From Escherichia phage vB_EcoM-ZQ1: DNA of 64,000 bases. Position 1 is the stretch's first letter; every line of letters starts with the position of its first letter. Of the stretch, positions 9,062 through 61,151 are shown piece after piece. The position numbers were made by a program, and so were the translations under genes. Location of the stretch: the sequence record MW650886.1; one strand, given 5' to 3'. The notes below the pieces were generated by a model. That model was not told the DNA's origin and did not search any database. It was given only the letters and a program-made list of their open reading frames with translations.

Positions 9062-9368
9062 CCAACGGGAATCAAAACGCTCGCGCGCGTTTAATTTATT
9101 CGAATATAACTCGCGAGGGGGCTGACGCCCTCGCTCGTAACACCGCCCTGTGCGGGCAGCACCATTCCACAGCCATGGAGGCTGCTTCTCGTTGTTCGTT
9201 GACACTCACAACTCGAAGGGCACTGCGTTAGGATACAGTTTCTTGATGTTGTAGAAAAGTAGTTTTTACCTATTAATAAACCGAACTCCTATTTTGTTGG
9301 TCTTTAATTCAATAACACTTGCACGAATATAATAGCCCGGACAATCAACCGTTATCAAGGAACCTCTC

Positions 9369-9941: not shown

Positions 9942-9998
9942 CGCTTTATTCAATAAAGAATTGCAGTAAAGTTAGTTGCATGGAAGGGAGGGAACACT

Positions 9999-10145: not shown

Positions 10146-11923
10146 CTCAAAGAGGAGAGGACTTTTCAAATTAGCTGGGCTGCAGTAAAGTATTAAGCGT
10201 GAGGCGAACAACGCATCGAGTTAGGCATCTAAAGCCGACCTCGCTAATCCCAGTCTCAGGGGCATGCGTGAATAGAGGCGTGATATCCACCTTGCATGGT
10301 GTCAGTGGACGCACTTGACCGTCGGAGAACGAAACTCCCTGTTGTAGCGTGATTAGCTCAGAATCAGAGAGCACCCTGTTGGCAAGTCGACACCAACATA
10401 TAAGGGGAGGTCGGGGGCGCTAATCTCCATCACGCCGGCAACATTATGAGTCTTCCACAGAGGGTTCATAATGTTGCGTCAAAGGGCAACAAGGTTCCTG
10501 TTGGTTGAATTAACTTGATTCATAGTTCCTACTGATCTTCCCGGATTCGAAGGAGCACCAACAGGCGAGGCCGGATGCGTAAGTTCCGGTAAATCGATGG
10601 TGATACCCTCGCCAACAAAAATAAAAGGTTTTATCAATAACGGGTTACAAAGTATAGTTAACCCACTGAAGCGAAAAGCTGTTTGGGCATTAGACAAACA
10701 CTTCGATGTGAACCCAGGACATGGCGTCTTGTGCTCAAACAGGTTTTCGTTTTCGTTGTGAGTGACTTTGCGGGTTTTTAGAAACTGACCAAGCAAATAA
10801 CTGCTAATGATTCCGAAGTTCTGATGGCGGCGTAACAGCCTATAAGTCAGTGAGGTCTTCCGATTCCTCATCACCAAATTCGGCGCACTAAAATAGACGG
10901 GAGGGTGTGATTAATAATCTCCCGTCGACAATGCCGTTATATCTGACTGTCCAAAGGGGATAAGCTCCTGAGTAAGCAGAGGTGGGTTGCCTAAGTCAGA
11001 TGGGATGTAAGGTCAGCGCTGGCCAAGCATTTGGGTTCGACTCCTAAAAACGGCTCCACATCTTTGAGGATATTCTCACGAGTATCTTGAAAGATGTGAG
11101 CGAAGTCTTGCCATCAGCCCTGATCCCTGGCAGGTGAAGGGCACACAAATCGAAGTGCCTTGACAATTTATCTTAAACCCAAAGGTTGATCTACAAATTG
11201 GACGGCCAATCCGGTGGACGATAACAGCATATTGGGCTATACTGTTGAGTCAGGGCACTTCGATTTGTGAACTTGAGAGAGCGTTGGGTGAAATAGACCA
11301 TGCCTTGCAGATTGCGATGCCTACACATTCCGGACACTGGTGGGCACCAAGAAGAACTCAGTAGCAGACGAGCCATCAGGGTTAGCTACCCGGCGCGGCG
11401 AGGACTGGGAGGCCGAACTAAGGGGAAACCCGAGACAGGCGTAGTATTCTCAAGTTCACAAAATGAAGAGCATTTAAAGAGTTCGATTCTCTTTCAGGCC
11501 ATTCGTGGTGTGATGTGAGTCATGAATGTTCTTCATCTTTGGGTGATTCTATGTTGCCGGGCTATCAACCCATGCTTGCTAGAGCAACCAGCCAGCCTCG
11601 TTTGGTCCGAGCGTTAGAGGACAAGTTGCTTCTACATGGAAGCTGCGAGTTGCGACATTGGTTGCAACTTTGATGGCTCTGGATTTTATAAACCATGTCT
11701 ATGGGTGACGCGGGATCTTTAGTACCAGAGCTATCAAAGTTGTGTCCAACCCGATCTTACAAGCCCGTATCCCGGTCTGGTTAAGACTTGTAAGTGGAAA
11801 GCCCTGGAAAAATAAACGCCTGTGGCGAGGCTATGGTGCAAGCCAAAGACCCACAGAAGCGCATGCCGTGAGGCAGCACAAACAGGCATGCATGAACTGA
11901 TCATGTACAAACGGGATAAAGGG

Positions 11924-12620: not shown

Positions 12621-12741
12621 CCTGTCTTATTATCTTCTTATCGACCCAAGCATGTCCTCCTTTATCGTAGTTTGTTCAATGATACAAAGGGGGTTTAAAA
12701 TTTAACCGTTAACCCCCTATCATAGATTTGAGGATACACTA

Positions 12742-16199: not shown

Positions 16200-16294
16200 G
16201 ATGTATTTCCTTCTCTTCAGATTGTTGTTTGTTCGTACTACAATTAGAAGTATACGCCAGTTATTGAAGAAGTAAACTTTATTCAATAAATATT

Positions 16295-17201: not shown

Positions 17202-18619
17202 ATGACCGTTTTCTATACGAACGTTGCCCGCAGGGGTAATGACCTGTTGATTCGAATTGCAGATGACATGGGTAATCGCCGTCTGTTGAAAAAGAAATTC
17301 GAACCTACTCTCTATTTACCCACGGCTGACTATTCAAATGTTGAAAAGGTCGGTCTTCTCAATGAACCCCTGGTAGCCAAGCAGTTCCCTTCCATGCGTG
17401 ACGCTGACAACTATCTTGAAGAGTACAAGGAAGTCCAGGGTGCTGCCATTTACGGGCAGACCGATTATGCATACCAGTTCATCGCCCATAGCTTTCCTGG
17501 AAAGATTGAGCCGGATTATTCCAACATCCATATTGCTAACCTCGATATCGAAGTGTTCTCCGCCGGGTGGAAAGATGGAAAGATGACCAAAGGTCCATTC
17601 CCTCACCCAACCATTGAGCAGCAGACGTTCAAAGGGAATGAGGCGCGCATTCGCCGCTTCCATCAGCAGGTACTGGCCAACCATGACTTCATCCGTGAGC
17701 ACTTTCCCAGTTCCTTTATCAGCAACAACGTCACTGATCAGTTCCCTATCATTGACAGCAACGGCAAGATCACCCAAGACATGAATGCGGCGTTCCCCAT
17801 TACCCTGATCCAGCTTCAGGATATGGCGACCAATAAGTTCATGGTCTGGGGTATGCCCTGTGCCAAAGACCGCAATAAGTTCGCATACGACACCGAAGAC
17901 AAAGAGATCGGCGGCCTTGAGGTTGTTTATCAGGAGTTCACCACAGAACAAGATCTGCTGCGCTCGTTCCTAGACTTCTGGTCGGAGCGTCAGTTTGATG
18001 GCTGGACTGGCTGGAACATTGAGACGTTTGATAGCCCTTATCTTGTTGAGCGCATGAATCAGGTTCTGGGTGAGGCTGAAACGTCGCGCCTCAGTCCTTG
18101 GGGTATCATTAAGAAGCGTATCATTCGCGATAAGAAGGGCGATATCACGACGTATCAGTTCGTGGGTTGCCCTATGCTCGATTATATGCAGATCTACAAG
18201 AAACACACGTACACCACCCGTGAACGCTACTCTCTTGACTGGATTGCGTATTGTGAGCTGGGTGAGAAGAAGATGGACTACAGTGAGAGCAAGTCGCTCT
18301 TTGATCTGTACTTCAACGACTACTGCAAACACACCCGATATGGTATCAAAGACGTTAAGCTGGTATGGCGACTTGAACAGAAGCTGCGCCTGCTCCAACT
18401 GATGTTCGTCCTGGCCTACCGCACCAAGTCCAACTATGAAGACGGTCTGGGCACTGTGGCTCCGTGGCTGGCCATGTGCTACTATCGCCTGTACGAGAAG
18501 GGGATAGTGCCTAAGATCCAGCGTGTATACGATGGTCCGACCGACTTTGAGGGTGCATACGTCATGGATGTGACACCAGGAATCTACTTCTGGGTCTTCT
18601 CGGAAGATTTGAACTCCCT
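17202..18619 (+). CDS. DNA polymerase, family B (T4 gp43-like), exon 1 (N-terminal exonuclease half)
   Basis: Exo I motif NLDIEV; ORF terminates 5 codons after the sequence DLNSL, which is the first half of polymerase motif A. Confidence 0.75.
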
Positions 18620-19802
18620 TAAGTTAGCAGCATAGGGGCTTTGGTTGGCGACAACCATCGAATAACTCTCTTAATTGCTGGGAAGTCTCTTTAGAGATAA
18701 TCAGCAGCCAAGGTCGGCCACGAAGACCTAAATACTCTGTAACCACGGTGAAGGAGTAAGGTCATGAAGGAAATCAAGAGTCTGTTCTATCGAAATGATT
18801 TGGTAATTGAAGAATCTAAGATAGAAGAATATTTGAAGTTCTGTAAGGAACACAGTTATGATGGTGATGGATACAGTGAACGCCATCATGTACTGCCTCA
18901 GGCACATTATCCTGAGTTCTCTAAAGAAGAATGGAACATCGTAAACCTGTTGTACAAAGATCATGTGGAGGCTCATCGCCTATTGCATGAAGCATTACCA
19001 GAAGATAAATCAGCGTTCTTCGCCTACTTCATGATGAAATCCCATAACGGGGAACTAAGTGAGGAATTGAGAAGAAAGAATGTTGAAATGTTGACGGGAG
19101 AAGGGAATCCTTCGAAGAGGGAAGATGTCAGAAGAAAGATATCCAAATCTAAGAAGGGTGTTAAAAGGGCAGATATGAAGGGTAAGGCTTATTTCGGCGC
19201 TGATAAAGAAACAGCTGAAAGAATTAAAGCCAATTCCAGTCTTGTTCACAAAGGCACTGTCCCCGTAAGACTCCTGGATGGTAGTGTTATCAAAGTTTCA
19301 ACGCAAGACCCGAGATATTTGAGTGGTGAGTTGAAATGTATAATAGGTGCAAAGAAAGGTCAGGTGGGACCAAACACCGACCCAAAAGCGAAGAAGAAAT
19401 TTAAAGATTCTTTAGAGAAAAGGAAGGAAATGTTTGCCAGAATGAGTGGGGAAGAAATAACCACTCATTGCTTGACACAACAGGATTTAGGTAAGAAGAC
19501 TGTAGAGTGGGGCAAGTTGGCAAGAAACTTCAAACGACTCTTTGGTTACGCTGGGTTAAACCCAGATGATTTCCTTGAAGTAGTGGGCGACAAGGTTCAA
19601 CGACTATCGAAAGCAAGACCGACGACTAAGCGTCTGATCTGAAGCGAGTAGAGTAGGGGCAAGCGCCTCGAAATGGAGAGAATCTCTAGACAGTTCTGGA
19701 GATTGTGATATAGTCTGGCCTGTATGGTGACATACAGCAGTGTTCGGTAAACTGAATGACGAACACGGGGGATGAAATAGCGAGCATCCCTGAACACAAG
19801 CG
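18620..19802 (+). mobile_element. Putative group I intron carrying an HNH homing endonuclease, inserted in the DNA polymerase gene
   Basis: Splicing 18619 to 19803 restores the frame and yields DLNSLYPHII (motif A); exon 1 ends in U, intervening sequence ends in G; internal ORF has an HNH motif. Confidence 0.6.
18764..19642 (+). CDS. HNH homing endonuclease (intron-encoded)
   Basis: HNH motif ERHHVLPQAHYPEF...NIVNLLYKDHVEAH; NUMOD-like repeats GEGNPSKREDVRRKISKSKKG; SD AAGGAG. Confidence 0.7.
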   Translation: MKEIKSLFYRNDLVIEESKIEEYLKFCKEHSYDGDGYSERHHVLPQAHYPEFSKEEWNIVNLLYKDHVEAHRLLHEALPEDKSAFFAYFMMKSHNGELSEELRRKNVEMLTGEGNPSKREDVRRKISKSKKGVKRADMKGKAYFGADKETAERIKANSSLVHKGTVPVRLLDGSVIKVSTQDPRYLSGELKCIIGAKKGQVGPNTDPKAKKKFKDSLEKRKEMFARMSGEEITTHCLTQQDLGKKTVEWGKLARNFKRLFGYAGLNPDDFLEVVGDKVQRLSKARPTTKRLI

Positions 19803-21150
19803 ATATCCACACATCATTCAGCAGTACAACCTCGGTCCTGAGACTATCGTTGGCGACAAACACCAGCGCCGCGAGATTATTGAGGCTATGTGTGAAGAGC
19901 TGGCTGCTCAGATGAATAACATGGCAACGCCGATGCACAAACGTCGGTTGATGAAAGCCCTTCACGACAAGCTGTTGCGTGCGGTTGACGAACGCCTGCA
20001 GGTTGTTGATGAGTTGGTTGCCCTGGGTGAGTTCCACTTTGAAACCCTGCGCCGCTACAACGTGTCGTTCACGCCGAACGTTCAATTCTTCAGCAACGAG
20101 AAGATGTCGTTCCTGTCTGAAATCATGCGTGGTATCTACAGCGACCGTAAAGTAGAGAAGGCCAAGGGTCTGAAGTATGAGCAGTGGGCTGGCTGGTGTA
20201 AAGAGATGTCGAAGGGCGACTTCCATCTTGAGTCTGCCATAAAGTCTCGCTACTATGACCCAGAGTGGTATGAAGAGCACAAGAACATTGATCTTGATGC
20301 CCTGACCGAAGTGATGAAGAAGTGGGAAGATCTGGGTGTTGCTCAAGATACCCTACAGCAAGGTCTGAAGATCTTGATGAACGCAGGTTATGGCGCTATC
20401 TCGAACGTCTGGTTCAAAGAGTACTTCAACCTCAACATTGCCGAAGCCATCACCACATCCGGTCAGCTGATCAATAAGTGGAACAAGCGTTACACTGATG
20501 ACTATCTGAACAAGCTGTGTGGTACAACAGGCCAGGACTTCGTCATTGCAGGGGATACCGACTCCAACTACATCTGTATTGAGCGTCTTGTCAAGCAGTT
20601 GTGGCCTGATGTTACTGACCATCATGCTATGGTTGATAATATCGACCAATGGATCAAAGACAACTACCAGCCGAAGACCAATGAGTGGGCACAGCTTCTG
20701 TGTAACACCATGAACGGATTTGAACAGCGCATGGTGTGGGAGCGTGAGGTCATTGCGTCAGCCGCTGTCTGGCGAGCCAAGAAGATGTATGCCATGGCCG
20801 TGTACGACAGTGAGGGTATCAAGTACGAGAAGCCGAAGATCAAGTTCAAAGGTCTGGAAGCCCGCAAGTCCACCACGCCGGAATGGTGTCGTGAGCGTCT
20901 TGTTAAGTGCTATGAGAAGATCCTACTCGGCACCGAAGAGGAAGTACAGACGCTCATCTCCCAGTACAAAGAGGAGTACATGAAGCTCTCTGTAGACGAT
21001 ATCGCCAAGGCATCCGGTGTGTCCGACATAGAGAAGTGTGTGGCCGCCGACGGCTCGTTCATCTCTGGTGCTCACTATGCTGCCAAGGCTTGTGTGGGTT
21101 ACAACCGTCTGGTTGAGAAGAACGAAGACCTCGGGCCTGCCGATGATTGA
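19803..21150 (+). CDS. DNA polymerase, family B, exon 2 (polymerase half)
   Basis: Begins YPHIIQQYNLGPETIV (motif A continuation); motif B KILMNAGYGA; motif C VIAGDTDSNYI. Confidence 0.75.
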
Positions 21151-21446
21151 GTCGGGTGATAAGGTCAACATGGTACTGCTGAAGAATGGCAACCCGTTTG
21201 GCCAGAATTACTTCGCATACCTGAGTTCTTCCCCGAGGAGCTTGGTCTGGGCAAATGGGTGGATTATCAGGCGGCCTTTGAGAAGTCCTTCATTGATCCG
21301 ATTCAGTCTATCCTCGACGTGGTCGGCTGGTCACACAAGCGCCGTGTGAACCTTCTTGCCATGATGCAAAAGAAGAAAGGTTGATTCAATAAACCAAAGG
21401 GGGATATAATTCCCCCTGTTAACCCTTTGACAAACAGGTGATTGAA

Positions 21447-21788
21447 ATGAAACTCAATAAGATTCTTCTGGTGTGTGCTCTGGCTTTCTCTACCACTGCG
21501 TGTTCCACCCTTCTGGACGTTGCATCTACTGTAGACCTTGACGCGCCGACGTTCACCAATGAGCAGGCCGTGTCTAAGATGGAAGACACCATCAAAGCAC
21601 ATGCAGCACTGGACAACACTACCCCAGGTCCGCTCCAAACTGTCTGCAACTATGACGATTCCATCCAGGAAGACGAAACTTACCACTGCATCACCTACGT
21701 GAAGCAGGCCTCCGTCGTTCTGTATGCAGATTGTACCGAAGAACAGTGTGTTGCTACAGGCTACGATAAAGTTGAGGAAGACAAATGA
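21447..21788 (+). CDS. Putative lipoprotein
   Basis: Signal peptide MKLNKILLVCALAFSTTAC with Cys at the lipobox position; SD AGGTGA; track start 21438 is a GTG. Confidence 0.45.
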   Translation: MKLNKILLVCALAFSTTACSTLLDVASTVDLDAPTFTNEQAVSKMEDTIKAHAALDNTTPGPLQTVCNYDDSIQEDETYHCITYVKQASVVLYADCTEEQCVATGYDKVEEDK

Positions 21789-22876: not shown

Positions 22877-24474
22877 TGGCTCGCTACCATTACACATATA
22901 GGATAACTCATGTCCCAACTGGGAGATTCTACGTCGGGATTCGGTCTTGTTCATGCACCCCCGAACAAGACCCCTATATGGGTTCTGGTGTTATCATCAA
23001 AAGGTTGTTGGAATCTCACCCCGCTTCTGAATTCTTAAAGACGATAATAGAAAAGTTTGAAACCAGGTTGGAGGCGTCCGACCTGGAGTCTATTATTGTT
23101 ACGGAAGAGTTACTGTTGGACCCATTATGCCTGAACCTGAAATTGGGAGGAGACAATTCTATCATACCAAACCAATTTAAGGCGGCGTTGGCCAGGACTG
23201 GCAAGAAATACAAATCTGGTATAAATCCTTGGGATGATCCAGAATACCGGGAACGTGTAATAAAATCAATAAAGGAGAACAGGGGTAATTCTCCCTACCC
23301 ATTCATGGTTTCAAATGGTTATTGGTGGGTTTGGAAGGACGCCCGTAGGATCTATGATAGATGGGTGAACAACGGCGGTACTGTGAATCCTACCTGTATG
23401 CCAAAACGAGGATGTGGTTACAAATCTATCGGATTGTGGTATTCTAAACTACTGGACACAGAGTATCGTAATCTAAAGGGCGATGAGAGCGTCTTTCGTA
23501 ATATGATCGCCATGTTTAAAGATGGTTGGATTCCCAAAGAGGACAAACGTTTTATGACTATGATAAATTCTAGCGTGACGCCGGGTATTGTCGTTATTCG
23601 CGGGACAAGTGGAACGGGAAAGGGGACTCGTGTCGTTCAATTCCTTGAGTGGTTGAGAACCAAATATGAGCCAGAACTCATAGAATACGAATTCGACAAG
23701 AAGATGATCCAGGTTGGGTTTTGGTTCAAGGAAATCAATCTGGTGTTCATCGGCAAGTATACAGTGTCCAACAAATCAGGTCTAGCATCATGGACTTCTA
23801 TGGATTTCATACACTCCACTCTCAAGTCTTCTGAGATGGCCAATTCGTTGTTGAAGTATCTCAAAATAAAGTTCAAAGATGCAACTATCATCTTGGAGGG
23901 GGAACCTATGATGCAGAGCCATCGATGGCGTCCCGAGTTCGTACACCAGGACTTGGGGTTCAACAACATGGCATTCATCTCCTTTATTTACCAAGCGCGG
24001 GAAGATTACGACAAACGTATCATCGGTCGTTCTGGTAAGGCGGCGAAGGACACTGGCTGGGGAAGAAATGAACAATACACCAAGGATCACGTCAAGATCA
24101 TGGGTGAGTACGCTTCCATCGGATACGAACTTGAACCAGACTCTCAGAATGAGTTGTTCATTGCAAAGGCAGCGAATGAAAATGGTGTAAAGGCAGTTGG
24201 TTGGAATATACTGAAATTCTTCGATGCCCCTCTCCACTTTATTGGTAGTTTTATTATAGATTTTGTTGGATTGAGAGGGTTGTCCAAAGAAGAGTTTCAA
24301 AAATATTGCGACACCACACCAATGTTGCGCAAGATTAAGGGTAGCAACCCTTTGGCGCACAGAGTCCCTGAGAAGCCGCAGAAGGCATCCAAAACTAAAA
24401 CCAAGGCGAGCGCCCAGCCAGAAGCAACGAAGGCAGCGTCGCGCTCTCTCCTTGACCTGATGAAGAAGGGGTGA
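22876..24474 (+). CDS. P-loop kinase with GIY-YIG-like N-terminal extension (candidate 5-hydroxymethyl-dU DNA kinase-type enzyme)
   Basis: N-terminus YHYTYRITHVPTGRFYVGIRS resembles a GIY-YIG nuclease motif; Walker A GIVVIRGTSGTGKGT at about residue 235, preceded by an internal ATG. Confidence 0.5.
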   Translation: MARYHYTYRITHVPTGRFYVGIRSCSCTPEQDPYMGSGVIIKRLLESHPASEFLKTIIEKFETRLEASDLESIIVTEELLLDPLCLNLKLGGDNSIIPNQFKAALARTGKKYKSGINPWDDPEYRERVIKSIKENRGNSPYPFMVSNGYWWVWKDARRIYDRWVNNGGTVNPTCMPKRGCGYKSIGLWYSKLLDTEYRNLKGDESVFRNMIAMFKDGWIPKEDKRFMTMINSSVTPGIVVIRGTSGTGKGTRVVQFLEWLRTKYEPELIEYEFDKKMIQVGFWFKEINLVFIGKYTVSNKSGLASWTSMDFIHSTLKSSEMANSLLKYLKIKFKDATIILEGEPMMQSHRWRPEFVHQDLGFNNMAFISFIYQAREDYDKRIIGRSGKAAKDTGWGRNEQYTKDHVKIMGEYASIGYELEPDSQNELFIAKAANENGVKAVGWNILKFFDAPLHFIGSFIIDFVGLRGLSKEEFQKYCDTTPMLRKIKGSNPLAHRVPEKPQKASKTKTKASAQPEATKAASRSLLDLMKKG

Positions 24475-24476
24475 TC

Positions 24477-24674
24477 ATGAAACGGTTGTCTAATTATCTG
24501 TTGTTCATTGGTCTGGTTATGGCAGCCGTTTCAATGTGTACTGCCCTAGCCTATCATTTCACCCCTCTGGACTTAACAACCTCAGAGAAGTTAAACGTGA
24601 CTGTGATGTACTGTATTGGCGCGGTGATGTCTATCGGCGCTGCTGGTTACAAAATATTCAAGGAACCAAAATGA
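24477..24674 (+). CDS. Small membrane protein
   Basis: 65 aa, two hydrophobic helices; SD GAAGGGG; track start 24471 is a GTG. Confidence 0.4.
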   Translation: MKRLSNYLLFIGLVMAAVSMCTALAYHFTPLDLTTSEKLNVTVMYCIGAVMSIGAAGYKIFKEPK

Positions 24675-25048
24675 AAATTCAAATTCCTCGCGATGCTGTG
24701 GCTGTTGCGATCGACTACACCGGAAACGCCAAGCACATTACTGCCGTGCGCCTGATTCCTGAAAAGAACTGCGTCATCCCTCAGTTCCAACTGAATGCCA
24801 ATCCGTCATCCAAAGACTTTGGCAAGTGGTTGCAGGCTGCTCCGTTCCGTACCCAGACGAACGCTCAGATGTTCATCTCGAGTAAGACCCACACCGCAGC
24901 CCGTCTGTGGTTCGTGACCGCTGACCGTCGCTTTGTCGATATGTGGGAACGTCCGATGGGGTTCGTGAAGCCGGAAGATATTCAGCTGGCTCCTGAGCCT
25001 GAAGCTGTGGCTCCTGAAGAGGAAGCGAAAGATGCATCATTTATCTAA
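24671..25048 (+). CDS. Hypothetical protein
   Basis: 125 aa; ATG overlaps the upstream stop (ATGA); the track ORF 24536..25048 has an unlikely upstream start. Confidence 0.45.
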   Translation: MKIQIPRDAVAVAIDYTGNAKHITAVRLIPEKNCVIPQFQLNANPSSKDFGKWLQAAPFRTQTNAQMFISSKTHTAARLWFVTADRRFVDMWERPMGFVKPEDIQLAPEPEAVAPEEEAKDASFI

Positions 25049-26267
25049 AATGCCGACGGGCTATACGCCTCCGGCTGAATGGAAGTACCCGATTGACCTG
25101 GCTGTTGATTATCGCAAGCCTGAGAATCGCATGTACCTGCTCAAGGCTTGGGTGGAGGCGCTGTCCTACACAGAAGAGCACAACCAGCAGATGCGTCTGA
25201 TGGACTATGCGATCGAAGTCACTGAAGGCATCAGCCTCGAACAGAAAGTCGAGCGCAAGATCTGGATGGCATTCCTGTGGGGTTGTTGCTATAACGCCGT
25301 CGGGCCGTGGACGATCTACAGTGAGTTCCCTGTGCCGCCTCAGTCTAAGGAAGATATGCAGCGCTTCTCTGATTGGTACAACCTGAACTTTGATCGCATG
25401 CGATTCGATACCGACTGTCGCTACCGCAAGTCCAAGATGATTCCGTGTGTTCAGTCCTATATTGACTGGCTGGCTGGCCGTACTCAATATGACGCTTTCC
25501 GTGGGATGTTGGTGTGCATCGATAAGACAGAACAATTCACCCAGCTGTGGGACACGGCGATGTCCTGGAAATACTTCGGTCGCCTGAGCGCCTGGAACTT
25601 CCTGGAAGCCCTGAACATGGTATTCGGAAACGAATACACCATTGACGTCCCTGGCTTCATGTTGCGTGATCGTGATGGAAGCGAGTCCAACCGTAATGGC
25701 GCGGCGTTCTTGTCCAACCGTGACGATTGGGTGACTAAACACGGGAAGAAAAAGATCAACGGTTGTCCTATCATGGATGAAGAGTGTGACATCCTTGAGG
25801 CCGACCTTGAGCAGGCGTTCCAGGATTGTGTGGCTGAGTTCGGGCACCTGACGTTCATCAACCGCCTGAACTTTGAAACCTCCGGCGCTTGTTGGCTGAA
25901 GAAATTCTTCCGACTGAAGAATACCCGTTACATCGGGTGGGACGCAGAGCGTACTTGGGATGAGATAGACTACATGGAACGCGTCTGGCCTGAATACTCC
26001 TGCGCAGCGCTCTGGGAAGCCCGTTCGCTCTGGCTGCCAGATACCCTGTTGTGCGAAAAGGCTCCTGTAGGGCACGTTCCAGGCGTCCAGAAGTGGAAGA
26101 TGCCTGTATTCTTTGAGACTGGTGTTCCTCTGCATATCTGGCACCTGCAAAAGGGTACGCGCTGGGAACCATCCGAGGTATGTACGAACCTGAAGATGCC
26201 TGTGCGCAAGGTTGAGGACAAGTCGAAGTCCAGCAGCGTCAACCTCATGGCACTCTTGAAACGCTGA
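25032..26267 (+). CDS. Hypothetical protein (candidate DNA base-modification enzyme by context)
   Basis: 411-aa ORF directly downstream of the kinase; SD GAGGAAG; the antisense 369-aa ORF 25041..26150 is judged a shadow. Confidence 0.45.
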   Translation: MHHLSKMPTGYTPPAEWKYPIDLAVDYRKPENRMYLLKAWVEALSYTEEHNQQMRLMDYAIEVTEGISLEQKVERKIWMAFLWGCCYNAVGPWTIYSEFPVPPQSKEDMQRFSDWYNLNFDRMRFDTDCRYRKSKMIPCVQSYIDWLAGRTQYDAFRGMLVCIDKTEQFTQLWDTAMSWKYFGRLSAWNFLEALNMVFGNEYTIDVPGFMLRDRDGSESNRNGAAFLSNRDDWVTKHGKKKINGCPIMDEECDILEADLEQAFQDCVAEFGHLTFINRLNFETSGACWLKKFFRLKNTRYIGWDAERTWDEIDYMERVWPEYSCAALWEARSLWLPDTLLCEKAPVGHVPGVQKWKMPVFFETGVPLHIWHLQKGTRWEPSEVCTNLKMPVRKVEDKSKSSSVNLMALLKR

Positions 26268-26301
26268 TATAAATATCCTCGCCTATAAAGCGAGGATATT
26301 A

Positions 26302-26472: not shown

Positions 26473-26497
26473 CTGACTGGGTTGCTTCCTTCAATAA

Positions 26498-26536
26498 AGG
26501 GGAATGGGTTATTATTAGCCCGTTCCCCTTTCTTTT
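26498..26536 (+). terminator. Intrinsic terminator
   Basis: Stem GGGGAATGGG / CCCGTTCCCC followed by TTTCTTTTT; preceded by TTCAATAAA. Confidence 0.6.
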
Positions 26537-26638
26537 TGCAAGAATATACATCATGGCAATGCAACGAATTGAAGATATGTCTCTACTCAACATGGAAGCG
26601 ACTTTTGGCGCTTCCGTTATCGTCATGGGAGAATCCAA

Positions 26639-26857
26639 ATGATCAAGAATACCCGAACAATGAAGCGCGCAATCGCTCACTGTGTCCATTCAGTGGCAAC
26701 TATTATGTTCCGCCACCACATCACATTTGATGAAGCACTGGACCCACAGTACCATGAAGAGCGTTGGGATTTGTTGTTAAAGAACGGCGCCAATCCTGAG
26801 CATAAAGATCAACTCCTTGGGATGACCAAGGCGCAGCTCGTCGGTGAATCCAAATGA
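26639..26857 (+). CDS. Hypothetical small protein
   Basis: 72-aa ORF whose stop overlaps the next start. Confidence 0.4.
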   Translation: MIKNTRTMKRAIAHCVHSVATIMFRHHITFDEALDPQYHEERWDLLLKNGANPEHKDQLLGMTKAQLVGESK

Positions 26858-27966
26858 TCTACCTCCTGTTTGGTGTGCCATTGGTACTGGCTATCCTGTT
26901 TGTGACCTACCACCGCAAGACCCATGAGCCGAAAGAGACTCTGATAGCGACCGCGATTGTAGTGGTGCTATCCTGTCTGATTCAGGCGGGGACTTATGCT
27001 GCGTTCTCCCTTGGCAGTTCAGGGGATATTGAGATCCTGAACGGGTACGTCACTGCAAAGGAGCGGAATGAGGTGAGCTGTGAGCATTCATATGAATGCA
27101 ACTGTTACTACACCACATCTTGTACAGGTTCAGGAAATAACCGATCTTGTACACAAACGCGTCATTGCAGCACATGCTATGAGCACTCTTATGACGTGGA
27201 CTGGGATGTGTTGACGACTGTCGGTAATTTGACGATTGACCGCATTGATCGTCGCGGCCTTGGTCAGCCCCCGCGCTGGGCGCAAGTTCAGATCGGCGAA
27301 CCCGCAGCCCGTGAGCATTCCTACATGAACTATGTGCTGGGTAACAAGGACTCTCTGTTCTCTCGCTCGGACCAGCAGTTTGCTGAGCGCTTCAAAGACA
27401 AGATTCCGAAGTACCCTGAGGTCTATGACTACTATCGCGTCACTCGTGTACTGAATGTGTCAGGGATGGACATTCCTGTTGATTACTGGAATGACTATCT
27501 GAACAATACTCTGAAAACATTAGGTGCTTCACGCCAGGTCAATATCGTCTGGGTTGTGACATCCGGTCAGCCAGTTGAATACTTCCAGGGCTTGGTCTAT
27601 GCTTGGGATGGTGGTAAAAAGAACGACGTTATCGTCGTGACCGACATCAGCAAAGATCTGAAGATCAACTGGGGCAAGAGCACTTCGTTCGCTGATGGTA
27701 TGCACAACCGTGAACTCCATTCTCGCAATGGCATGGCTCTCACAGGCCACGACATGGGCGTCGGTGTCATGGCTGATGTTGTCGCTAACATCACCAAAGG
27801 CTACAACCGCGTTGAGATGAAGGAAATGGAGTACCTGAAGTGGCGGGAACTCAAGACCTGGGAAGTTGTGGTTGTTGTTCTGCTGGGCTGCTTACCATTC
27901 ACCGCAATTTTCATATTGCAGCGAATGGAGTACAATGGTGGCCGTCGTTATCCGTTTAATTTTTAA
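26854..27966 (+). CDS. Cys-rich membrane protein (N- and C-terminal TM helices, large extracytoplasmic domain)
   Basis: TM helices at both ends; Cys cluster CEHSYECNCYYTTSCTGSGNNRSCTQTRHCSTCYEHSY; immediately upstream of the LemA-family gene. Confidence 0.5.
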   Translation: MIYLLFGVPLVLAILFVTYHRKTHEPKETLIATAIVVVLSCLIQAGTYAAFSLGSSGDIEILNGYVTAKERNEVSCEHSYECNCYYTTSCTGSGNNRSCTQTRHCSTCYEHSYDVDWDVLTTVGNLTIDRIDRRGLGQPPRWAQVQIGEPAAREHSYMNYVLGNKDSLFSRSDQQFAERFKDKIPKYPEVYDYYRVTRVLNVSGMDIPVDYWNDYLNNTLKTLGASRQVNIVWVVTSGQPVEYFQGLVYAWDGGKKNDVIVVTDISKDLKINWGKSTSFADGMHNRELHSRNGMALTGHDMGVGVMADVVANITKGYNRVEMKEMEYLKWRELKTWEVVVVVLLGCLPFTAIFILQRMEYNGGRRYPFNF

Positions 27967-28972: not shown

Positions 28973-28988
28973 TCGTTCTTCAATAAAA

Positions 28989-29021
28989 GGGGATAGGGTA
29001 TTATTGCTCTATCCCTTTTTC
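28989..29021 (+). terminator. Intrinsic terminator
   Basis: Hairpin GGGATAGGG...CTCTATCCC followed by TTTTTCG; preceded by TTCAATAAA. Confidence 0.5.
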
Positions 29022-29034
29022 GTGGACAGGAAAC

Positions 29035-30526: not shown

Positions 30527-30631
30527 TCTGAACAAAGCCCTCAGCCGAGGGCTTTTCAATTGAAGACACCCACCGTATTATACCCACTCAACCAATATGT
30601 TCCCCTTTGACATTGATAGGATTTCTATACT

Positions 30632-33388
30632 ATGAAAATGCGCAAGTCCGAGCACTTTATCCGCTCGTCGTCTTCCATTCAGGGGCAGGCGTTCAACGTG
30701 AAGATGAACGATAAGATGTTTGAGACTCTGTTCTCATCATTGTATCGTTACAAAGAGGCTGCAGCCCTGCGCGAAACCGTCTGTAACGCCATCGACTCTC
30801 ATGGCATGCGTGATCGTATGCACCGTATGATAGCATCCCACTACGTGCCTCTCACTCCGCCTCCTGCCCGCCATAGCAAATACCTTGCACCGAAGGGTAA
30901 GCAGGTTGTTGTGCATCTACCTGATGACTTTGAGCCATGGCTGGAAATCCGTGATTACGGTATCGGTCTGCCACTTGAGAAGATCATTGGTGAGCCTATC
31001 CCAGCACAGGAAGATGAGGTGCTGCTGGAAGGCAATATGGTCGTGAAGGAAGACGAGATCCCTGACTCAGCTGAGGTCATCGGTGTGCCTGCGTTCTATA
31101 ATGGTGGTCTAGTGTTCCGTCGCGAAGATGGTGAAATCATTCGTACGCCTGGGTTGTATACCACTCTCTTCCACAGTACGAAGGAAGAAGATGATGATCA
31201 GATTGGGGCATTCGGTCTTGGCTCCAAATCACCATTTGCGGTATCGGATTCGTTCACTGTGGAAAGCCGCATGGACGGTAAACTCCATCGCTTCCTGATG
31301 TACCTGAATGCCAAGCGCATCCCGACTGTTGATCTGATCACCAAAGATCTTGAAACCCGTGATCCTAAGCCGGAAGACACCGATGAGTTCAACGGCATGA
31401 CGGTGAAGATCCCGGTGAAGAACGCTCGCTTCTCCGCATTCTCTGATGAGCTGGTTCGCCTTGGTCGTGTTATGCGCCCTGAACAACGTCCAATTGTTGA
31501 GAACGCTTCATACCGCTTCAGCTGGGAAGATATCAGTTATGATTTTAAGGTCAACAACACGTACATCCAGCCGAAAGGCCAGGGGAACACCCATTATGCT
31601 GTAATGGGTGGCGTGTCGTACCCGATTGACCTGAATCAGCTCGACCCAGACACTTCCTCTATCATGAGTAAGTTTCCATCGTCCTACACGTTCTTCGAAC
31701 TTGGCTCGCTGAACGTACCACCGTCGCGTGAAGACCTTTCATATGACGAATTCACGCGTGAGACGCTCTCTGAGGAGTTTAAAGAGACCGCCAATGCAAT
31801 CTTGAAAGAAAAGATGCGTGACCTGGAGCTGGCGTGTAAGCGCGGTCCTCTTGCCCTGTATATGGAGAAGGTAAAACTGAGTGAAATGTTCGGCAGTGGG
31901 TTCCGCAAGATGGTTGAAAAGGAATACCCGGCAGACAAGCGCTTTCATGATTCATATTACCGTTACCCGCTGCCTGTTGAGATTGATCGCGATTATGACC
32001 ATACCGCGCCGTTCAATGAATTGTCATCGCCGTTCTCTATGGAGATCTTCTATGACTGGGGTGAGTCCAGTAATTTGACCATTTCAGAAATCCAGAAGTG
32101 GATTGATCGCGGCCAGCATGTTACTGTGGTGATCGAAGATAGTGTTCGTGCTCGTAACCTGAAGATCAAGCAGCTGAAAGATACAGGGACGATAGTCATC
32201 GTGGCCAAGCCGAACACATCCTATGTCACCAAGCGCAACCAATCTAAGGACAACCCTGCGTTCAAGAATTCTCAGGCTCTCTATGATTTCTTTGAAACTT
32301 GGATTGGTAAAGAAGAAACGACGGTTGATTATCTGTGCTTCGCTGACAAGTTCGTCGATTGGCTGAGTGCGGTGCTGGAGCCTGCCGAAGTCAAGTTCAT
32401 GAACGAACTGACGTATGTCACACCCCCGGTCACCAAAGACCCTGGCCTATTTCCGTTCACGCGCAGCAACTTCGACATATACCAGTCTGAAGAACTGACG
32501 GGCGACCAGATCTCAGATATCATCAACAAGGGCGAGCGCATCGTCTATATTGAGGTGTCTGGTTATGAGTGTATCCATCAGGTGATGGGCAGAACGTTGA
32601 CCGCAGCTGCGGCGCGAGGCATCCGCGAGTCTCTCTACAAACATGCCGTTCACGCGGATGAAGATGGCAAGCCGGTGTATATCAGCGATATGTTGAACGT
32701 TCACAACCGAATCTTCTTGGCTCGCCGTAAATCCGTGCCAATGATGAAGAAGTTCCCAGAGGTCTTCATACCGATTGATGAGATTCTGAAGATTATGTTG
32801 GAGAATGCCAGGCCGATGCTGGAACGCCACAACGCGATACGGTTGCTGAAATCTCATCAGAGGCTTCACCTTGGTTCTAATCGCCTGAAATACGGGTGTC
32901 ATCTGGTAAAACAGGCGTTCGGTGAAGGGGAAGACGGGCGTTATAATCAGCTGGTTAATCGGTATAACCAAATGCTGGATTATGTTGACGATATCTTGGA
33001 CGAACAAACTATCCGCCATTATCAGGCGATGTCGAAGCGTAATGTTTCTCTTCATGAGGTTCGCCGCTTCAAACATTTCCAGGATACGATCAGCACTCTG
33101 AATCTGAATCTGTATACCAATGAGCGGGATGAAAGGGTGTTCCGCGCAGAACAACGCATGTTGCAAATCTTCAGTCACGCATCGGAAGTTCTGAGGATTC
33201 ATGGATTCGTGCCGTTTGATTTACTGAAGACGCCAACACGGAACGCGAAAAAGGCGAACCGCATGACCGTAGAACGTCATCGTGTTGTCCGGTTCTTGAA
33301 AGAGAATTACAAACCAAGCGCCCTGAACCCGATTGAAAATTCTTCGGATTACTTGGACGTTATTTCAAATTCCATCATCAGGGCATAA
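30632..33388 (+). CDS. rIIA: rIIA protein (GHKL-type ATPase domain)
   Basis: N-terminal motifs SLYRYKEAAALRETVCNAIDSH and IGAFGLGSKSPFAVSDSFTV match the rIIA / GHKL ATPase signature. Confidence 0.75.
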   Translation: MKMRKSEHFIRSSSSIQGQAFNVKMNDKMFETLFSSLYRYKEAAALRETVCNAIDSHGMRDRMHRMIASHYVPLTPPPARHSKYLAPKGKQVVVHLPDDFEPWLEIRDYGIGLPLEKIIGEPIPAQEDEVLLEGNMVVKEDEIPDSAEVIGVPAFYNGGLVFRREDGEIIRTPGLYTTLFHSTKEEDDDQIGAFGLGSKSPFAVSDSFTVESRMDGKLHRFLMYLNAKRIPTVDLITKDLETRDPKPEDTDEFNGMTVKIPVKNARFSAFSDELVRLGRVMRPEQRPIVENASYRFSWEDISYDFKVNNTYIQPKGQGNTHYAVMGGVSYPIDLNQLDPDTSSIMSKFPSSYTFFELGSLNVPPSREDLSYDEFTRETLSEEFKETANAILKEKMRDLELACKRGPLALYMEKVKLSEMFGSGFRKMVEKEYPADKRFHDSYYRYPLPVEIDRDYDHTAPFNELSSPFSMEIFYDWGESSNLTISEIQKWIDRGQHVTVVIEDSVRARNLKIKQLKDTGTIVIVAKPNTSYVTKRNQSKDNPAFKNSQALYDFFETWIGKEETTVDYLCFADKFVDWLSAVLEPAEVKFMNELTYVTPPVTKDPGLFPFTRSNFDIYQSEELTGDQISDIINKGERIVYIEVSGYECIHQVMGRTLTAAAARGIRESLYKHAVHADEDGKPVYISDMLNVHNRIFLARRKSVPMMKKFPEVFIPIDEILKIMLENARPMLERHNAIRLLKSHQRLHLGSNRLKYGCHLVKQAFGEGEDGRYNQLVNRYNQMLDYVDDILDEQTIRHYQAMSKRNVSLHEVRRFKHFQDTISTLNLNLYTNERDERVFRAEQRMLQIFSHASEVLRIHGFVPFDLLKTPTRNAKKANRMTVERHRVVRFLKENYKPSALNPIENSSDYLDVISNSIIRA

Positions 33389-33419
33389 TAGTCCTGTTAA
33401 CCAACGTGGGAACTACAAG

Positions 33420-35635: not shown

Positions 35636-35665
35636 GCCGGTGTACAACAGCTGAACTTATTCAAT

Positions 35666-37082: not shown

Positions 37083-37111
37083 GCCATGAACGCGATGATC
37101 ATGGGTTAACA

Positions 37112-37136
37112 AAAGAGGCTCCGGCCTCTTTTTCAT
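37112..37136 (+). terminator. Intrinsic terminator
   Basis: Hairpin AGAGGC-TCCG-GCCTCT followed by TTTTTCATTT. Confidence 0.6.
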
Positions 37137-37200
37137 TTCCAGCATTTAGTGTATAATGGACCCGTTCCCCATGAGCGGAACCTAACTGAGGATACACCAA

Positions 37201-37986: not shown

Positions 37987-38475
37987 ATGATGCTGTTAAT
38001 GAGCGTTCCACAGAACAAGATGACCCCTGCAACAGAGGGCAAGAATCACTTCAACATCTACAGCCGGAGCCAGACGGAACTCGGGCGCTTCCTCTCGCAT
38101 TTTACCCATCATCCAATGACTACCCATGAACATGGTGTGTTTAACTCCATGGAGGGGTACTGGTATTGGCTGAAGTATAGGGATGACAACCTGCGCCTGC
38201 TCGACGGTTATGAGGCCAAGCAATATGGACAGGGATTGGCGGCTTCCCGCGTCATTGTCCTGGACCCGTCTACCGAAGAATTCAAGCGCGATATCCTATT
38301 TGCAACTAGCATGAAACTCCAGACAATGCCTGAACGTCTGAAGATCAGATTGGCGTACAGTCGCCTACCCCTGATCCATGCATATGTTCAGAACGGGAAA
38401 TACAGTTTTCAAAACTCTATGGACTATATCATTGCCCACATTAATCGTCTCCGCATACAAGGAACTTTGAAATGA
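37987..38475 (+). CDS. Hypothetical protein
   Basis: Track start 37972 is a TTG; first ATG is at 37987. Confidence 0.4.
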   Translation: MMLLMSVPQNKMTPATEGKNHFNIYSRSQTELGRFLSHFTHHPMTTHEHGVFNSMEGYWYWLKYRDDNLRLLDGYEAKQYGQGLAASRVIVLDPSTEEFKRDILFATSMKLQTMPERLKIRLAYSRLPLIHAYVQNGKYSFQNSMDYIIAHINRLRIQGTLK

Positions 38476-43188: not shown

Positions 43189-43599
43189 ATGAAATTACTG
43201 GGATATTTTCGTGAACTCCCAACGGGAACTGAAGGCAAGTTGTTCTCACAGGTGAAGGGGGATGACATTGGTGATACGATGATTCCCCTGTACACTCGTG
43301 AACTTCCTGTCGAAGGTGCCTGGGAGCGCCGTGTGGTCGCTGCCGCCAACAAATATGGTGATGTAATCGTCGTTGCTGACCGTCACCACAGCCGATTCAT
43401 GAACAGCCAGCTCAAGATCCTGAAAGAAGCAGGCGTCATTAAATCCACCCATACCCGCGAACAGGGCTTCATCGACAACCAGGGCAACTTCCTCACTCGT
43501 GAAGAGGCGTGCATCGTAGCCCGTGAAGCTGGACAGATCAATCAGGTGCGCCTGAAGACAACCCCTTTCCGCGAACTCTTTTCCGAAGACCTCTATTGA
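43189..43599 (+). CDS. Hypothetical protein
   Basis: 136-aa ORF. Confidence 0.45.
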   Translation: MKLLGYFRELPTGTEGKLFSQVKGDDIGDTMIPLYTRELPVEGAWERRVVAAANKYGDVIVVADRHHSRFMNSQLKILKEAGVIKSTHTREQGFIDNQGNFLTREEACIVAREAGQINQVRLKTTPFRELFSEDLY

Positions 43600-43649
43600 A
43601 GAAAAAGGCGGTATTATTACCGCCTCGACCCCTTGTTTGGTAACATCAA

Positions 43650-45121: not shown

Positions 45122-45420
45122 TTGTATTCACTGTCATCGGTGTGATCGTAACAGCTGGGGTGTTCACAGCCATATTGGGCTACCTGTACTTCATGTTCCT
45201 TCATCCGTTATTTCAGGCGTTCAGTCTCACGAATTGGTACTTGGCCTGCCTAAAGGCCGACGGCGGCGTGAACATGGCCTCTCTTCCTTACTGGCGGCTG
45301 GTAGCGCATTACTACTCGGTCGGTGGCTGGCCTGGGGAAAGGACATGGAACTCTATCGGTGAGTGGTATGGAATAGGTCGATGGCGTATATTCCCTGATG
45401 AAGACGATCAAGCCCCGTGA
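45118..45420 (+). CDS. Small membrane protein
   Basis: 100 aa with N-terminal TM helix; terminator hairpin overlaps its stop. Confidence 0.4.
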   Translation: MIVFTVIGVIVTAGVFTAILGYLYFMFLHPLFQAFSLTNWYLACLKADGGVNMASLPYWRLVAHYYSVGGWPGERTWNSIGEWYGIGRWRIFPDEDDQAP

Positions 45421-45431
45421 GGGGCTTTTCT
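45411..45431 (+). terminator. Intrinsic terminator
   Basis: Hairpin AGCCCC-GTGA-GGGGCT followed by TTTC. Confidence 0.5.
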
Positions 45432-45484
45432 ATATCCTGGATAGAGTATCATTGGTTCACCAACGAATCCTCGGGAGAGGTGAT

Positions 45485-47035: not shown

Positions 47036-47057
47036 ATAAAGATTCAGCGGTTATTGA

Positions 47058-47090
47058 AGAAGGGGGAGTATATACTTCCCCTTAGTTTAT
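47058..47090 (+). terminator. Intrinsic terminator
   Basis: Hairpin AAGGGGGAGTA-TATA-TACTTCCCCTT followed by AGTTTATT. Confidence 0.5.
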
Positions 47091-55006: not shown

Positions 55007-55229
55007 GATATTTGTCCGCTAATGTCTTATAATATTTGTTAGGATTATACTCCTGTTTGGAATAGTGAAGAGTAAGGGAAGCACTCAGACCTAGGATAAT
55101 CACGACAACGAGCGCCTTGTGGTTATTGATCTCGGGAATAGCTATCCACACCAGCAACAACACAAGCGAGCTGATAATCAAGGACAGCAAGAACGTTAAT
55201 GCAATCACCAATGCGAATAGCTCGTCCAT
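54972..55229 (-). CDS. Small membrane protein
   Basis: 85 aa with two TM helices. Confidence 0.35.
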   Translation of the reverse strand: MDELFALVIALTFLLSLIISSLVLLLVWIAIPEINNHKALVVVIILGLSASLTLHYSKQEYNPNKYYKTLADKYHEFKNERASGK

Positions 55230-56890: not shown

Positions 56891-57004
56891 GTGGTGTCTC
56901 CAGGGTTATATGTGCTGCTATTATAACCCTGGGGACTTCAATAGATTATTGGTGGGTGTGGGATCTTGCTTAGCCGATAATGACCGCAAATGTTTCTGTA
57001 TCCA

Positions 57005-58547: not shown

Positions 58548-58776
58548 GGTCTGTTCCTTCTGTAAGTTCCCATGTATTATATGGGTGAATCGTTTAATGA
58601 ATTATTTGTTATGGAAACCCAGAGCCTTGTAGACTTCTTCACGATTTTAATTTCGGCCTGAGCCTCTGTGTGATTAATCCGGCGCTTGTGTTGTCGGGCG
58701 TCAATGGCATCGATTAGACAACGGATCTCAGCGCATCAGGGGCTTACCCAACAGCCAGTTGAAATACTCGCGCATG

Positions 58777-60328: not shown

Positions 60329-60374
60329 TACAGATTAAATATTAGGCGATTATTTCTTGAAAGTAAAGTTATTG

Positions 60375-60404
60375 AAGTAAAAAGCCCAGTACTTGACTGG
60401 GCTT
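60375..60404 (-). terminator. Intrinsic terminator (minus strand)
   Basis: 9-bp stem AAGCCCAGT / ACTGGGCTT with 5-nt loop, followed on the minus strand by TTTTTAC. Confidence 0.55.
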
Positions 60405-61087: not shown

Positions 61088-61151
61088 GATGTGCTCCTGG
61101 TTTATATTCAGATCATAAAATTATACCCTATGACCCGCTTTATTGAATTAC

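Follow-up and report, generated by a model that had tools for sequence, protein, structure and literature searches.

A recurrent intergenic box spaced 12 bp from a sigma70-type -10 element as a probable promoter class of Ackermannviridae phages

The stretch of 64,000 nucleotides from Escherichia phage vB_EcoM-ZQ1 (sequence record MW650886.1) that is analysed here, referred to as the window, carries a short box, TTCAATAA, which recurs in its intergenic regions and which is probably the upstream recognition element of a promoter class that is phage-specific and shared by Ackermannviridae, lying 12 bp from a sigma70-type -10 element. All results are sequence statistics and comparative conservation. 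The megablast comparison places the window in an Ackermannviridae (Aglimvirinae, Agtrevirus-like) phage, with 97-98% identity over long stretches to Escherichia phages A221, PC3 and RPN242 and to Enterobacter phage fGh-Ecl02, and with about 90% identity to Dickeya phage LIMEstone1. The genome-wide statistics are from the complete annotated relative RPN242 (154,840 bp, 195 coding sequences), from which the gene map of the window has also been transferred by BLASTP, the window-specific open reading frames (ORFs) being patched by hand. Sites in which the TTCAATAA box is spaced about 12 bp from a -10 element are named class 1, and the units at 21385, 26490 and 28979 are named S1, S2 and S3, respectively; class 2 sites are promoters of the sigma70/T4-early type, TTTACT-N17-TAnnnT (N12, N17 and so on give the number of intervening nucleotides).

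An earlier note on this DNA had described a motif recurring in at least eight intergenic regions, and this motif is real. There are six exact copies of TTCAATAAA in the window (9949, 16282, 21385, 26490 and 28979 on the plus strand, 61139 on the minus strand), when 0.59 are expected and each of 100 shuffles has at most three, and there are three exact copies of GTTATTGAAG (16260, 47050 and 60368). All nine are non-coding when placed on the transferred gene map, and they are spread over eight separate regions. The core 8-mer TTCAATAA is the most frequent 8-mer of the non-coding DNA of the window, which is 9.4% of the total and holds 10 of the 14 copies (binomial p=3.9e-8). The enrichment in intergenic over coding DNA, which the note had named as a check, is also seen in the whole genome of RPN242, where 20 of the 26 copies are found within the 7.8% of intergenic DNA. 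The list of eight sites needs revision in several places. The listed site near 35655 is no site, having only TTCAATAT, which overlaps the ATG of the gene at 35666, with neither a -10 element nor a hairpin, while the copy at 61139 (minus strand) and about ten degenerate copies had been overlooked. The sites are also not one class, as 16260-16290 and 60368 are canonical TTTACT-N16/17 promoters and the box at 47050 is inverted.

The signal consists of two blocks, TTCAATAA-N12-TATAAT, of which there are about 25 sites per genome. In RPN242 the distance between the box and a -10-like hexamer has one sharp peak, at 12 bp, which is the spacing of 8 of the 26 exact boxes; when one mismatch is allowed there are 13 sites at this distance against a background of about 3, and with two mismatches 26 against about 7. 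A peak at N11-12 is also found in Taipeivirus, in Erwinia phage phiEa2809 (N11-12) and in Serratia phage phiMAM1, with 27-41 kb sampled for each. Of 45 two-block matches in RPN242, 25 are intergenic, and in most of these the -10 element ends 28-41 nt 5' of a start codon on the same strand (27-43 nt overall), so that the leaders would be about 20-35 nt long and contain the ribosome-binding site. The boxes are also oriented, 16 of the 20 intergenic copies in RPN242 pointing toward the downstream gene. An oriented box at such fixed distances is promoter geometry. The related genomes are non-independent samples, and these statistics, obtained from non-orthologous sites inside one genome, are nearer to independence.

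The same picture is obtained with a position weight matrix (PWM), refined on the DNA preceding each of the 196 genes, which converged on 27 sites. The information is in the T-T-C-A-A-T-A positions of the box (0.7-1.5 bit each) and in the T, the A and the final T of the -10 element (1.5-1.9 bit), with a G-rich stretch directly 5' of the latter. In the window 12 matches score at least 13 bits, compared with 0-2 (mean 0.4) in 20 shuffles, and for 10 of these 12 a start codon is found 27-61 nt further 3'. The sites at 21385, 26490 and 28979 are textbook class 1 members, and those at 9308, 10633, 12675, 30555, 33364, 37132, 38407, 45428, 55044, 58576 and 61120-61147 are further or degenerate members (Table 1).

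A box that is 12 bp from the -10 element is in a position unfit for the sigma70 -35 hexamer, and no -35 element resembling TTGACA is found at 17 +/- 1 bp from the -10 element at the class 1 sites. For 21381-21420 the earlier note had proposed a sigma70-type promoter with TTGATT as the -35 element and with the -10 element in a hairpin loop. TATAAT (21405-21410) does occupy the hairpin loop, and TTGATT-N18-TATAAT is present at 21381-21410, with 10 of 12 consensus matches; nevertheless, TTGATT is not the upstream promoter element. It is coding sequence, from the last codons of the DNA polymerase (..GGT TGA), and is lost in L012, phiEa2809 and phiMAM1, where the C terminus of the polymerase differs, and it is rejected because it is not conserved beyond the coding constraint. 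TTCAATA(A/T) is kept in all three of these, and N12 in two. A perfect TTGACA also occurs in the predicted leader of S1, 3' of the hairpin (21420-21436, CCCTTTGACAAACAGG), with no -10 element at a usable distance; it is kept in four of the six genera sampled and is lost in Erwinia and Serratia.

The comparison with relatives is based on a search of IMG/VR anchored on the DNA polymerase, which gave 19 loci, to which Taipeivirus UPM2146, Erwinia phage phiEa2809 and Serratia phage phiMAM1 were added. Agtrevirus-like phages, Limestonevirus, Kuttervirus and Taipeivirus all have the same box, N12 and -10 element at S1-S3, with changes in the flanks and, to some extent, in the stems, and box and spacing are kept in at least six genera with diverging flanks. 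At the S1 orthologs the stem is AGGGGGA/TCCCCCT in the window, in Kuttervirus and in LIMEstone1; in Taipeivirus it is CAACAGGGGGA/TCCCCTTGTTG, lengthened by compensatory A-to-C and A-to-G changes; in Erwinia it is AGTGGGGC/GCCCCACT, with GATAAT in the loop and N12; and in Serratia phage phiMAM1 it is GGGGGC/GCCCCC, with TATACT in the loop, the box TTCAATAT and N14. Since the box, the -10 element and the layout with the -10 in a hairpin loop are kept while flanks and stems change, both the two blocks and this layout are under selection, and TTGATT is not. Among the matches listed in an IMG/VR scan with the exact pattern, the contigs with several matches are almost all 157-164 kb long. This conservation, together with the N12 peak and the constant distance to the start codon, bears out the suggestion of the earlier note that the motif marks promoters.

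About half of the class 1 sites have a G-run on the 5' side of the -10 element and a C-run on its 3' side, which pair into a stem with the -10 in the loop or at the apex. Local folding is stronger around class 1 -10 elements than around 914 control -10-like hexamers (median -9.7 versus -5.4 kcal/mol, Mann-Whitney p=0.003), also when compared with intergenic controls only (p=0.011). The earlier statement that the motif usually abuts a hairpin beginning AAGGGG is an overstatement: a GGGG/CCCC hairpin is present at four of the eight regions (21385, 26490, 28979 and 47050), the copy at 60368 adjoins a different GC hairpin, and 9949, 16260-16290 and 61139 have no GGGG/CCCC hairpin. The notion of fused terminator-promoter units holds at several sites. 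By eye, a T-run follows about 5 of the 13 -10-bracketing hairpins of RPN242, and in a terminator scan the hairpins and T-runs of S2 and S3 look like intrinsic terminators. The likeness to Rho-independent terminators lies in these two units (26496-26540 and 28985-29025), where long GC stems are followed by T-runs; the difference is that most of the bracketing hairpins are without a T-run, as at 21398-21417, at 12688-12718 and in every S1 ortholog, and that a -10 element is present in the loop or at the apex of each one.

Table 1 Promoter-like sites and associated hairpins in the window (PWM scores in bits; folding energies in kcal/mol with z scores)
Feature	Position	Strand	Description
S1, class 1	21385..21417	+	box 21385-21392, N12, TATAAT 21405-21410; 33.6 bits
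S1 hairpin	21398-21417		AGGGGGA/TCCCCCT, -10 in loop, no T-run; -15.1 kcal/mol, z -2.6
S1 next start codon	21438/21447		
S2, class 1	26490..26540	+	box 26490-26497, N12, TATTAT 26510-26515; 26.8 bits; start 26553
S2 hairpin	26496-26531		16 bp, -10 at apex, then CTTTTT; -26.5 kcal/mol, z -6.2
S3, class 1	28979..29025	+	box 28979-28986, N12, TATTAT 28999-29004; 25.6 bits; start 29035
S3 hairpin	~28985-29020		-10 at apex, then TTTTT; -24.0 kcal/mol, z -6.6
Class 1, no hairpin	9308..9333	+	TTCAATAA-N12-TATAAT, 35 nt 5' of start 9369; 18.5 bits; overlooked earlier
Box in palindrome TTTATTCAATAAA	9944..9973	+	weak -10 TAAAGT at N11; below PWM threshold
Class 1 variant	10633..10658	+	ATCAATAA-N12-TATAGT, tRNA region; 29.3 bits; kept in relatives
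Class 1 variant	12675..12718	+	TTCAATGA-N13-TAAAAT; start 12742; kept in relatives
Hairpin AGGGGGTT/AACCCCCT	12688-12718		-10 TAAAAT in loop, no T-run; -16 kcal/mol, z -3.0
Class 2	16249..16290	-	GTTTAC-N17-TATACT, 16249-16277 (TTTACT-N16-TATACT as scored)
Inverted boxes at this class 2 site	16261-16268 and 16282-16289		TTATTGAA-N13-TTCAATAA, flanking the -35
Terminator-like hairpin, then degenerate class 1	30534..30581	+	hairpin 30534-30555; TTCAATTG-N13-TATTAT; 5' of rIIA (30632)
Degenerate class 1	33364..33389	+	TTCAAATT-N12-CATAAT, 30 nt 5' of rIIB (33420); 21.8 bits
Terminator-like hairpin, then class 1	37111..37157	+	hairpin 37111-37132; TTCATTTC-N12-TATAAT; start 37201; 19.2 bits
Degenerate class 1	38407..38432	+	within 3' end of upstream gene, 39 nt before start 38472; 16.1 bits
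Inverted-box variant	43594..43625	+	TATTGAAG-N10-TATTAT; -10 in loop of hairpin 43606-43625; start 43650
Terminator-like hairpin, then class 1	45410..45452	+	hairpin 45410-45427; TTCTATAT-N11-TATCAT; start 45485
Inverted box and hairpin	47050..47083	+	GTTATTGAAG 47050-47059; AAGGGG/CCCCTT 47060-47083; start 47106
Hairpin of the 47050 site	47060-47083		TATATA/TATACT in loop; -17.1 kcal/mol, z -3.0
Class 1 variant	55044..55069	-	TTCACTAT-N12-TATAAT, ~38-50 nt 5' of next minus-strand start (ATG 55006 in the ORF list, 54994 in the RPN242-transferred map)
Inverted-box variant	56900..56943	-	TATTGAAG-N10-TATAAT; -10 inside hairpin 56900-56932; DNA ligase start 56890
Class 1 variant	58576..58601	-	TTCATTAA-N12-TATAAT, 28 nt 5' of start 58547; 16.0 bits
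Class 2	60339..60404	-	terminator hairpin 60382-60404 (-16.8 kcal/mol, z -3.2), T-run into TTTTTACTTCAATAAC, then TTTACT-N17-TAATAT
Class 1	61120..61147	-	TTCAATAA-N14-TATAAT; -10 in TCATA/TATGA loop; ~50 nt 5' of start 61069; overlooked earlier

The class 2 sites are a minority of the motif occurrences. They have a spacing peak of their own, at 17, and about ten intergenic copies are found in RPN242, often adjoining a terminator hairpin. At the class 2 promoters of 16260-16290 and 60368 the box is in the spacer, beside the -35 element; the GTTATTGAAG copy at 60368 is the box read on the opposite strand of the promoter at 60339..60404. At two class 2 promoters an inverted box is found 13 bp upstream, as TTATTGAA-N13-TTCAATAA, and the architecture of 16249..16290 recurs at 55282/55303 of RPN242. 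No spacing peak that would mark a general promoter element is seen for the inverted box (TTATTGAA/TATTGAAG), for which only three sites fit, with N10-11; the inverted-box sites at 47050, 43594 and 56920-56943 (minus strand) are a possible variant. The palindromic box at 9944..9973 may be a weak promoter of the small ORF at 9999, which is an uncertain assignment.

The class 1 geometry resembles that of the T4 middle promoters, where the MotA box is 12 +/- 1 bp from a stringent sigma70 -10 element (Hinton 2010, PMC2988021). In both, the -35 hexamer gives way to an upstream box with its centre near -30, and here the N12 spacing, the only peak in RPN242 and present in three other genera as well, is to a sigma70-type -10 element. 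The genes served are also alike. The T4 middle genes are those of replication, recombination, nucleotide metabolism and tRNAs (Hinton 2010, PMC2988021), and 3' of the class 1 sites are found ssb, nrdA, the clamp loader, the primase region, the td/tk region, uvsY, tRNAs and rIIA/rIIB, that is, replication, nucleotide-metabolism, tRNA and rII genes; class 2 sites are followed by clusters of small genes of unknown function. The differences are that the box is TTCAATAA and not (a/t)(a/t)(a/t)TGCTT(t/c)A, the PWM being without a TGCTT core, and that there is no MotA or AsiA homolog here, in agreement with Kutter 2011 (PMC3184105). By this comparison, class 1 sites are not T4 middle promoters, although they appear to function in a similar way. 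The T4-type early promoters (TTTACW-N17-TAYWAT) are matched instead by the class 2 sites at 16249-16277 and 60339-60383 (both minus strand), which are likewise often next to a terminator hairpin, with the difference that class 2 also carries TTCAATAA in the spacer and/or inverted 5' of the -35 element.

A second known arrangement is the early promoter-stem-loop cassette (PeSL) of T4-like phages and its 'middle' version with a Mot box (PmSL), in which the stem-loop overlaps the -10 element or sits between the promoter elements and is described as a terminator or attenuator and as a recombination point (Arbiol 2010, PMC2839356; Comeau 2014, PMC4122927). The same order of stop codon, promoter, polyG/polyC stem-loop, Shine-Dalgarno sequence (SD) and start codon is found at 21385-21447, 26490-26553, 28979-29035, 12675-12742 and 47050-47106. 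At one of these cassettes, S2, identity to close relatives breaks, as it does in the PeSL/PmSL systems: to 23 related loci it is 85-96% over the 400 nt before the cassette and about 60% over the 400 nt after it, and three unrelated first genes follow (26540-26860) in otherwise near-identical phages. Judged from these alignments, S2 would be a PeSL-like modular exchange point. The differences are that these are Ackermannviridae, that the upstream element is TTCAATAA and neither a sigma70 -35 element nor a Mot box (class 1 sites have neither type of promoter, and only two class 2 sites have TTTACT-N16/17), and that the cassettes are orthologously conserved across genera, most of them lying at conserved core-gene junctions (DNA polymerase, ssb, nrdA) and not mainly in hyperplastic regions. 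The genes flanking S1 and S3 are orthologous in all relatives. The upstream element TTCAATAA is new relative to PeSL/PmSL and to the T4 middle promoters.

The early and middle promoters of ViI-like phages have been described as not identifiable by informatics, with MotA and AsiA lacking (Kutter 2011, PMC3184105). The AG3 and LIMEstone1 papers give only a handful of sigma70-like sites, and the TTCAATAA-N12-TATAAT consensus is not described in the CBA120, AG3 and LIMEstone1 papers. In the GenBank record of LIMEstone1 the S1 ortholog is unannotated, the orthologs of S2 and of the td/tk site are annotated as terminators only, the S3 ortholog as a terminator and an isolated '-10 putative promoter', and the ortholog of 60339..60404 as a 'putative middle promoter' and a terminator. 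A 2012 'Viunalikevirus' paper, whose abstract reportedly mentions 'conserved regulatory sequences', may already describe the motif.

If class 1 sites are promoters of this kind, the box would span about -32 to -25, in place of the -35 hexamer; the -10 element would be read by host RNA polymerase with sigma70, and the box would be read not by sigma70 region 4 but, most likely, by an early phage protein acting as MotA and AsiA do in T4. That class 1 needs a phage factor and is of middle or delayed-early timing is put forward tentatively, and we regard it as possible rather than probable. Class 2 would then be the immediate-early set, used by the host sigma70 polymerase. Transcripts starting about 7 nt after the -10 element would begin in the 3' arm of the hairpin (S2 at about 26522, S3 at about 29011) or at its end (S1 at about 21417), so that only read-through RNA from the upstream gene could fold the hairpin. 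Such RNA would be terminated where a U-run follows (26490, 28979), and attenuated or stabilised where none follows (21385). Each unit would thus be a compact terminator or insulator with a restart promoter, shielded from upstream transcription.

Several observations weigh against this proposal. The start sites and terminators are predicted from sequence, and neither a transcriptome or start-site map of any Ackermannviridae phage nor the motif string was found in the searchable literature. About 8 of the 13 -10-bracketing hairpins of RPN242 have no T-run, which means that termination is not their general role. The box is also found in the spacer and upstream of the -35 element of class 2 promoters, and these other positions are unexplained by a simple model of an activator at -30. 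With phmmer no MotA or AsiA homolog is detected at E<=10 among all ORFs of RPN242 and of the window, and the best tblastn match to T4 MotA/AsiA (E=0.05) is inside the topoisomerase gene. In a screen against Pfam, PHROGs and NCBIfam of 20 RPN242 proteins, chosen as being encoded downstream of TTTACT-N17 promoters, annotated 'DNA-binding protein' or neighbours in the ligase/helicase region, 19 have no transcription-factor domain and the twentieth is HU-like; no sigma-like or MotA-like factor is among them, the other matches being enzymes and a PHROG 639 regulator. DNA binding is annotated only for a DsbA-like and for the HU-like protein; in T4, DsbA is a binder of late promoters. It is also possible that host sigma70 RNA polymerase alone might use class 1 sites through the strong -10 element.

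The last point leads to the alternative that class 1 sites are ordinary early promoters of unmodified host sigma70, with TTCAATAA as a preference of the spacer or -35 region and no phage factor. The near-consensus -10 element is in agreement with this, as are the failure to find a MotA/AsiA homolog or other activator in the proteins searched and the TTG just 5' of the box at some sites (TTGATT at 21381; gtTTGTTCAAT upstream of the tRNA genes). However, TTCAAT is 14 bp from the -10 element, too near for a -35 hexamer, and at about -35/-34, just 5' of the box, where a sigma70 -35 element would start, two positions of the PWM carry only 0.4-0.5 bit and a third about 0.1 bit; TGn extended -10 elements are not systematic, and the separate canonical TTTACT-N17 class in the same genome suggests two modes of recognition, so that this alternative is considered somewhat unlikely. 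Distinctly less credence is given to TTCAATAA as an operator (of an HU-like, DsbA-like or host nucleoid protein) that represses or modulates promoters instead of recruiting polymerase. The phage does encode an HU-family protein (PF00216) and a PHROG 639 'transcriptional regulator', boxes occur in either orientation upstream of hairpins, and the inverted pair, which an operator would account for, has an identical 13-bp spacing around the -35 element at two class 2 promoters; but the dominant pattern, in which the box is single and oriented and its distance from the -10 element is constant, is that of a promoter element and not of an operator, the inverted orientation has no spacing peak, and HU-type proteins usually have no such sequence specificity.

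A motif with no promoter role, either an A-rich sequence conserved on the 5' side of intrinsic terminators or what is left of a recombination cassette repeated around the genome, is highly improbable. The AAA of TTCAATAAA does pair with the T-run in the S2 and S3 hairpins, and the break of identity exactly at the S2 cassette is as seen at PeSL recombination points. Nevertheless, about half of the two-block sites are without any hairpin, the spacing is fixed to the -10 element and not to the foot of the hairpin (AAACCAAAGGGGG versus AAAGGGG), the box is invariant while the flanks differ among copies and genera, and the distance to the start codon is constant. Some other systems have been compared and set aside. 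The N4 virion RNA polymerase promoters have a 5-7 bp stem and a 3-nt loop and are read on single-stranded DNA by a phage RNA polymerase; the loops here are 4-9 nt and hold a sigma70 -10 element, and no large RNA polymerase ORF is found in the window or in the RPN242 annotation. The sigma32, sigma28 and sigmaE consensus sequences mismatch in sequence and spacing. The resemblance to the H-NS (TCGATAAATT) and integration host factor consensus sequences provides leads only and leaves the fixed spacing unexplained. Early promoters to set beside these were also sought in 13 kb of T4 DNA, with no useful result.

A more far-reaching version of the phage-factor proposal is rather unlikely in our view: an early phage protein would read TTCAATAA at -30, appropriating sigma independently of MotA and AsiA, and the conserved G-run/C-run inverted repeat, beyond any role as an RNA terminator, would itself contribute to how the promoter works, extruding under supercoiling to give a pre-melted -10 element, for instance, or sensing supercoiling or read-through. 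The phage carries a thymidine-hypermodification set, consisting of P-loop nucleotide kinase 2, aGPT-pyrophosphorylase clade 2 and 5-hmdU DNA kinase (PF18748), together with the HU-family protein; the loci concerned are 23578-26267 of the window and, outside it, 35510-36169 and 70893-71171 of RPN242. The T-rich box and the -10 element would be modified in virion DNA, and the hypermodification could feed into recognition of the box. Phage SPO1, which also has hydroxymethyluracil DNA, regulates early promoters with the HU-like protein TF1. The PHROG 639 protein is a 104-residue protein encoded at 60422-60736 (minus strand), downstream of the TTCAATAA-N14-TATAAT site at 61120-61147; it has a helix-turn-helix-like segment, and its homologs carry PF11126, which we take to be the family of T4 DsbA, the late-promoter-binding protein. 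A PDB sequence search with this regulator gave nothing significant.

Hairpins of another kind are also seen in the window. Inverted repeats at 1913-1949 and 5135-5175 (minus strand) and at 26266-26300 (plus strand) have a late-promoter-like element in the 5' arm, CTAAATACC at 1941 and 5167 (minus strand) and TATAAATA at 26266, an example of the arms being TATAAATATCCTCGC..GCGAGGATATTatcATG. The SD is covered by the 3' arm of these repeats, which stops 2-3 nt short of a start codon; this also applies to the repeat at 14672-14698 (plus strand), which has ATACCCCA as its arm and the nearest CTAAATACC outside it, at 14769. The T4 genes e, soc and I-TevI share this layout, in which read-through early RNA hides the ribosome-binding site and late-promoter RNA does not. 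An Rfam scan of the whole window finds two tRNAs only, the hairpins matching no known RNA family.

The window further contains tailspike and baseplate genes (minus strand, 1-9000), a tRNA region, an intron-split DNA polymerase gene, the thymidine-hypermodification genes, rIIA/rIIB, and genes for topoisomerase, ligase, helicase and UvsX. The DNA polymerase gene (17202-21384), which precedes S1, is split as in LIMEstone1 into exons 17202-18635 and 19756-21384, with an I-LimII-like intron ORF at 18764-19642; LIMEstone1 has one more intron. When compared with RPN242, the last exon has a 1-nt insertion near 21136 and a 1-nt deletion near 21219, about 80 nt apart, which put about 27 codons out of frame and generate a stop codon at 21148-21150. 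This pair reflects either two sequencing errors or a disrupted polymerase gene.

For the Ackermannviridae, a defined consensus makes the question of the early and middle promoters of ViI-like phages directly testable, as it predicts start sites and gives a DNA bait with which a box-binding factor could be sought. It would also provide a second, independent '-30 box' promoter architecture to set beside the sigma appropriation of T4, and it allows better annotation of the therapeutic and biocontrol phages of this family.

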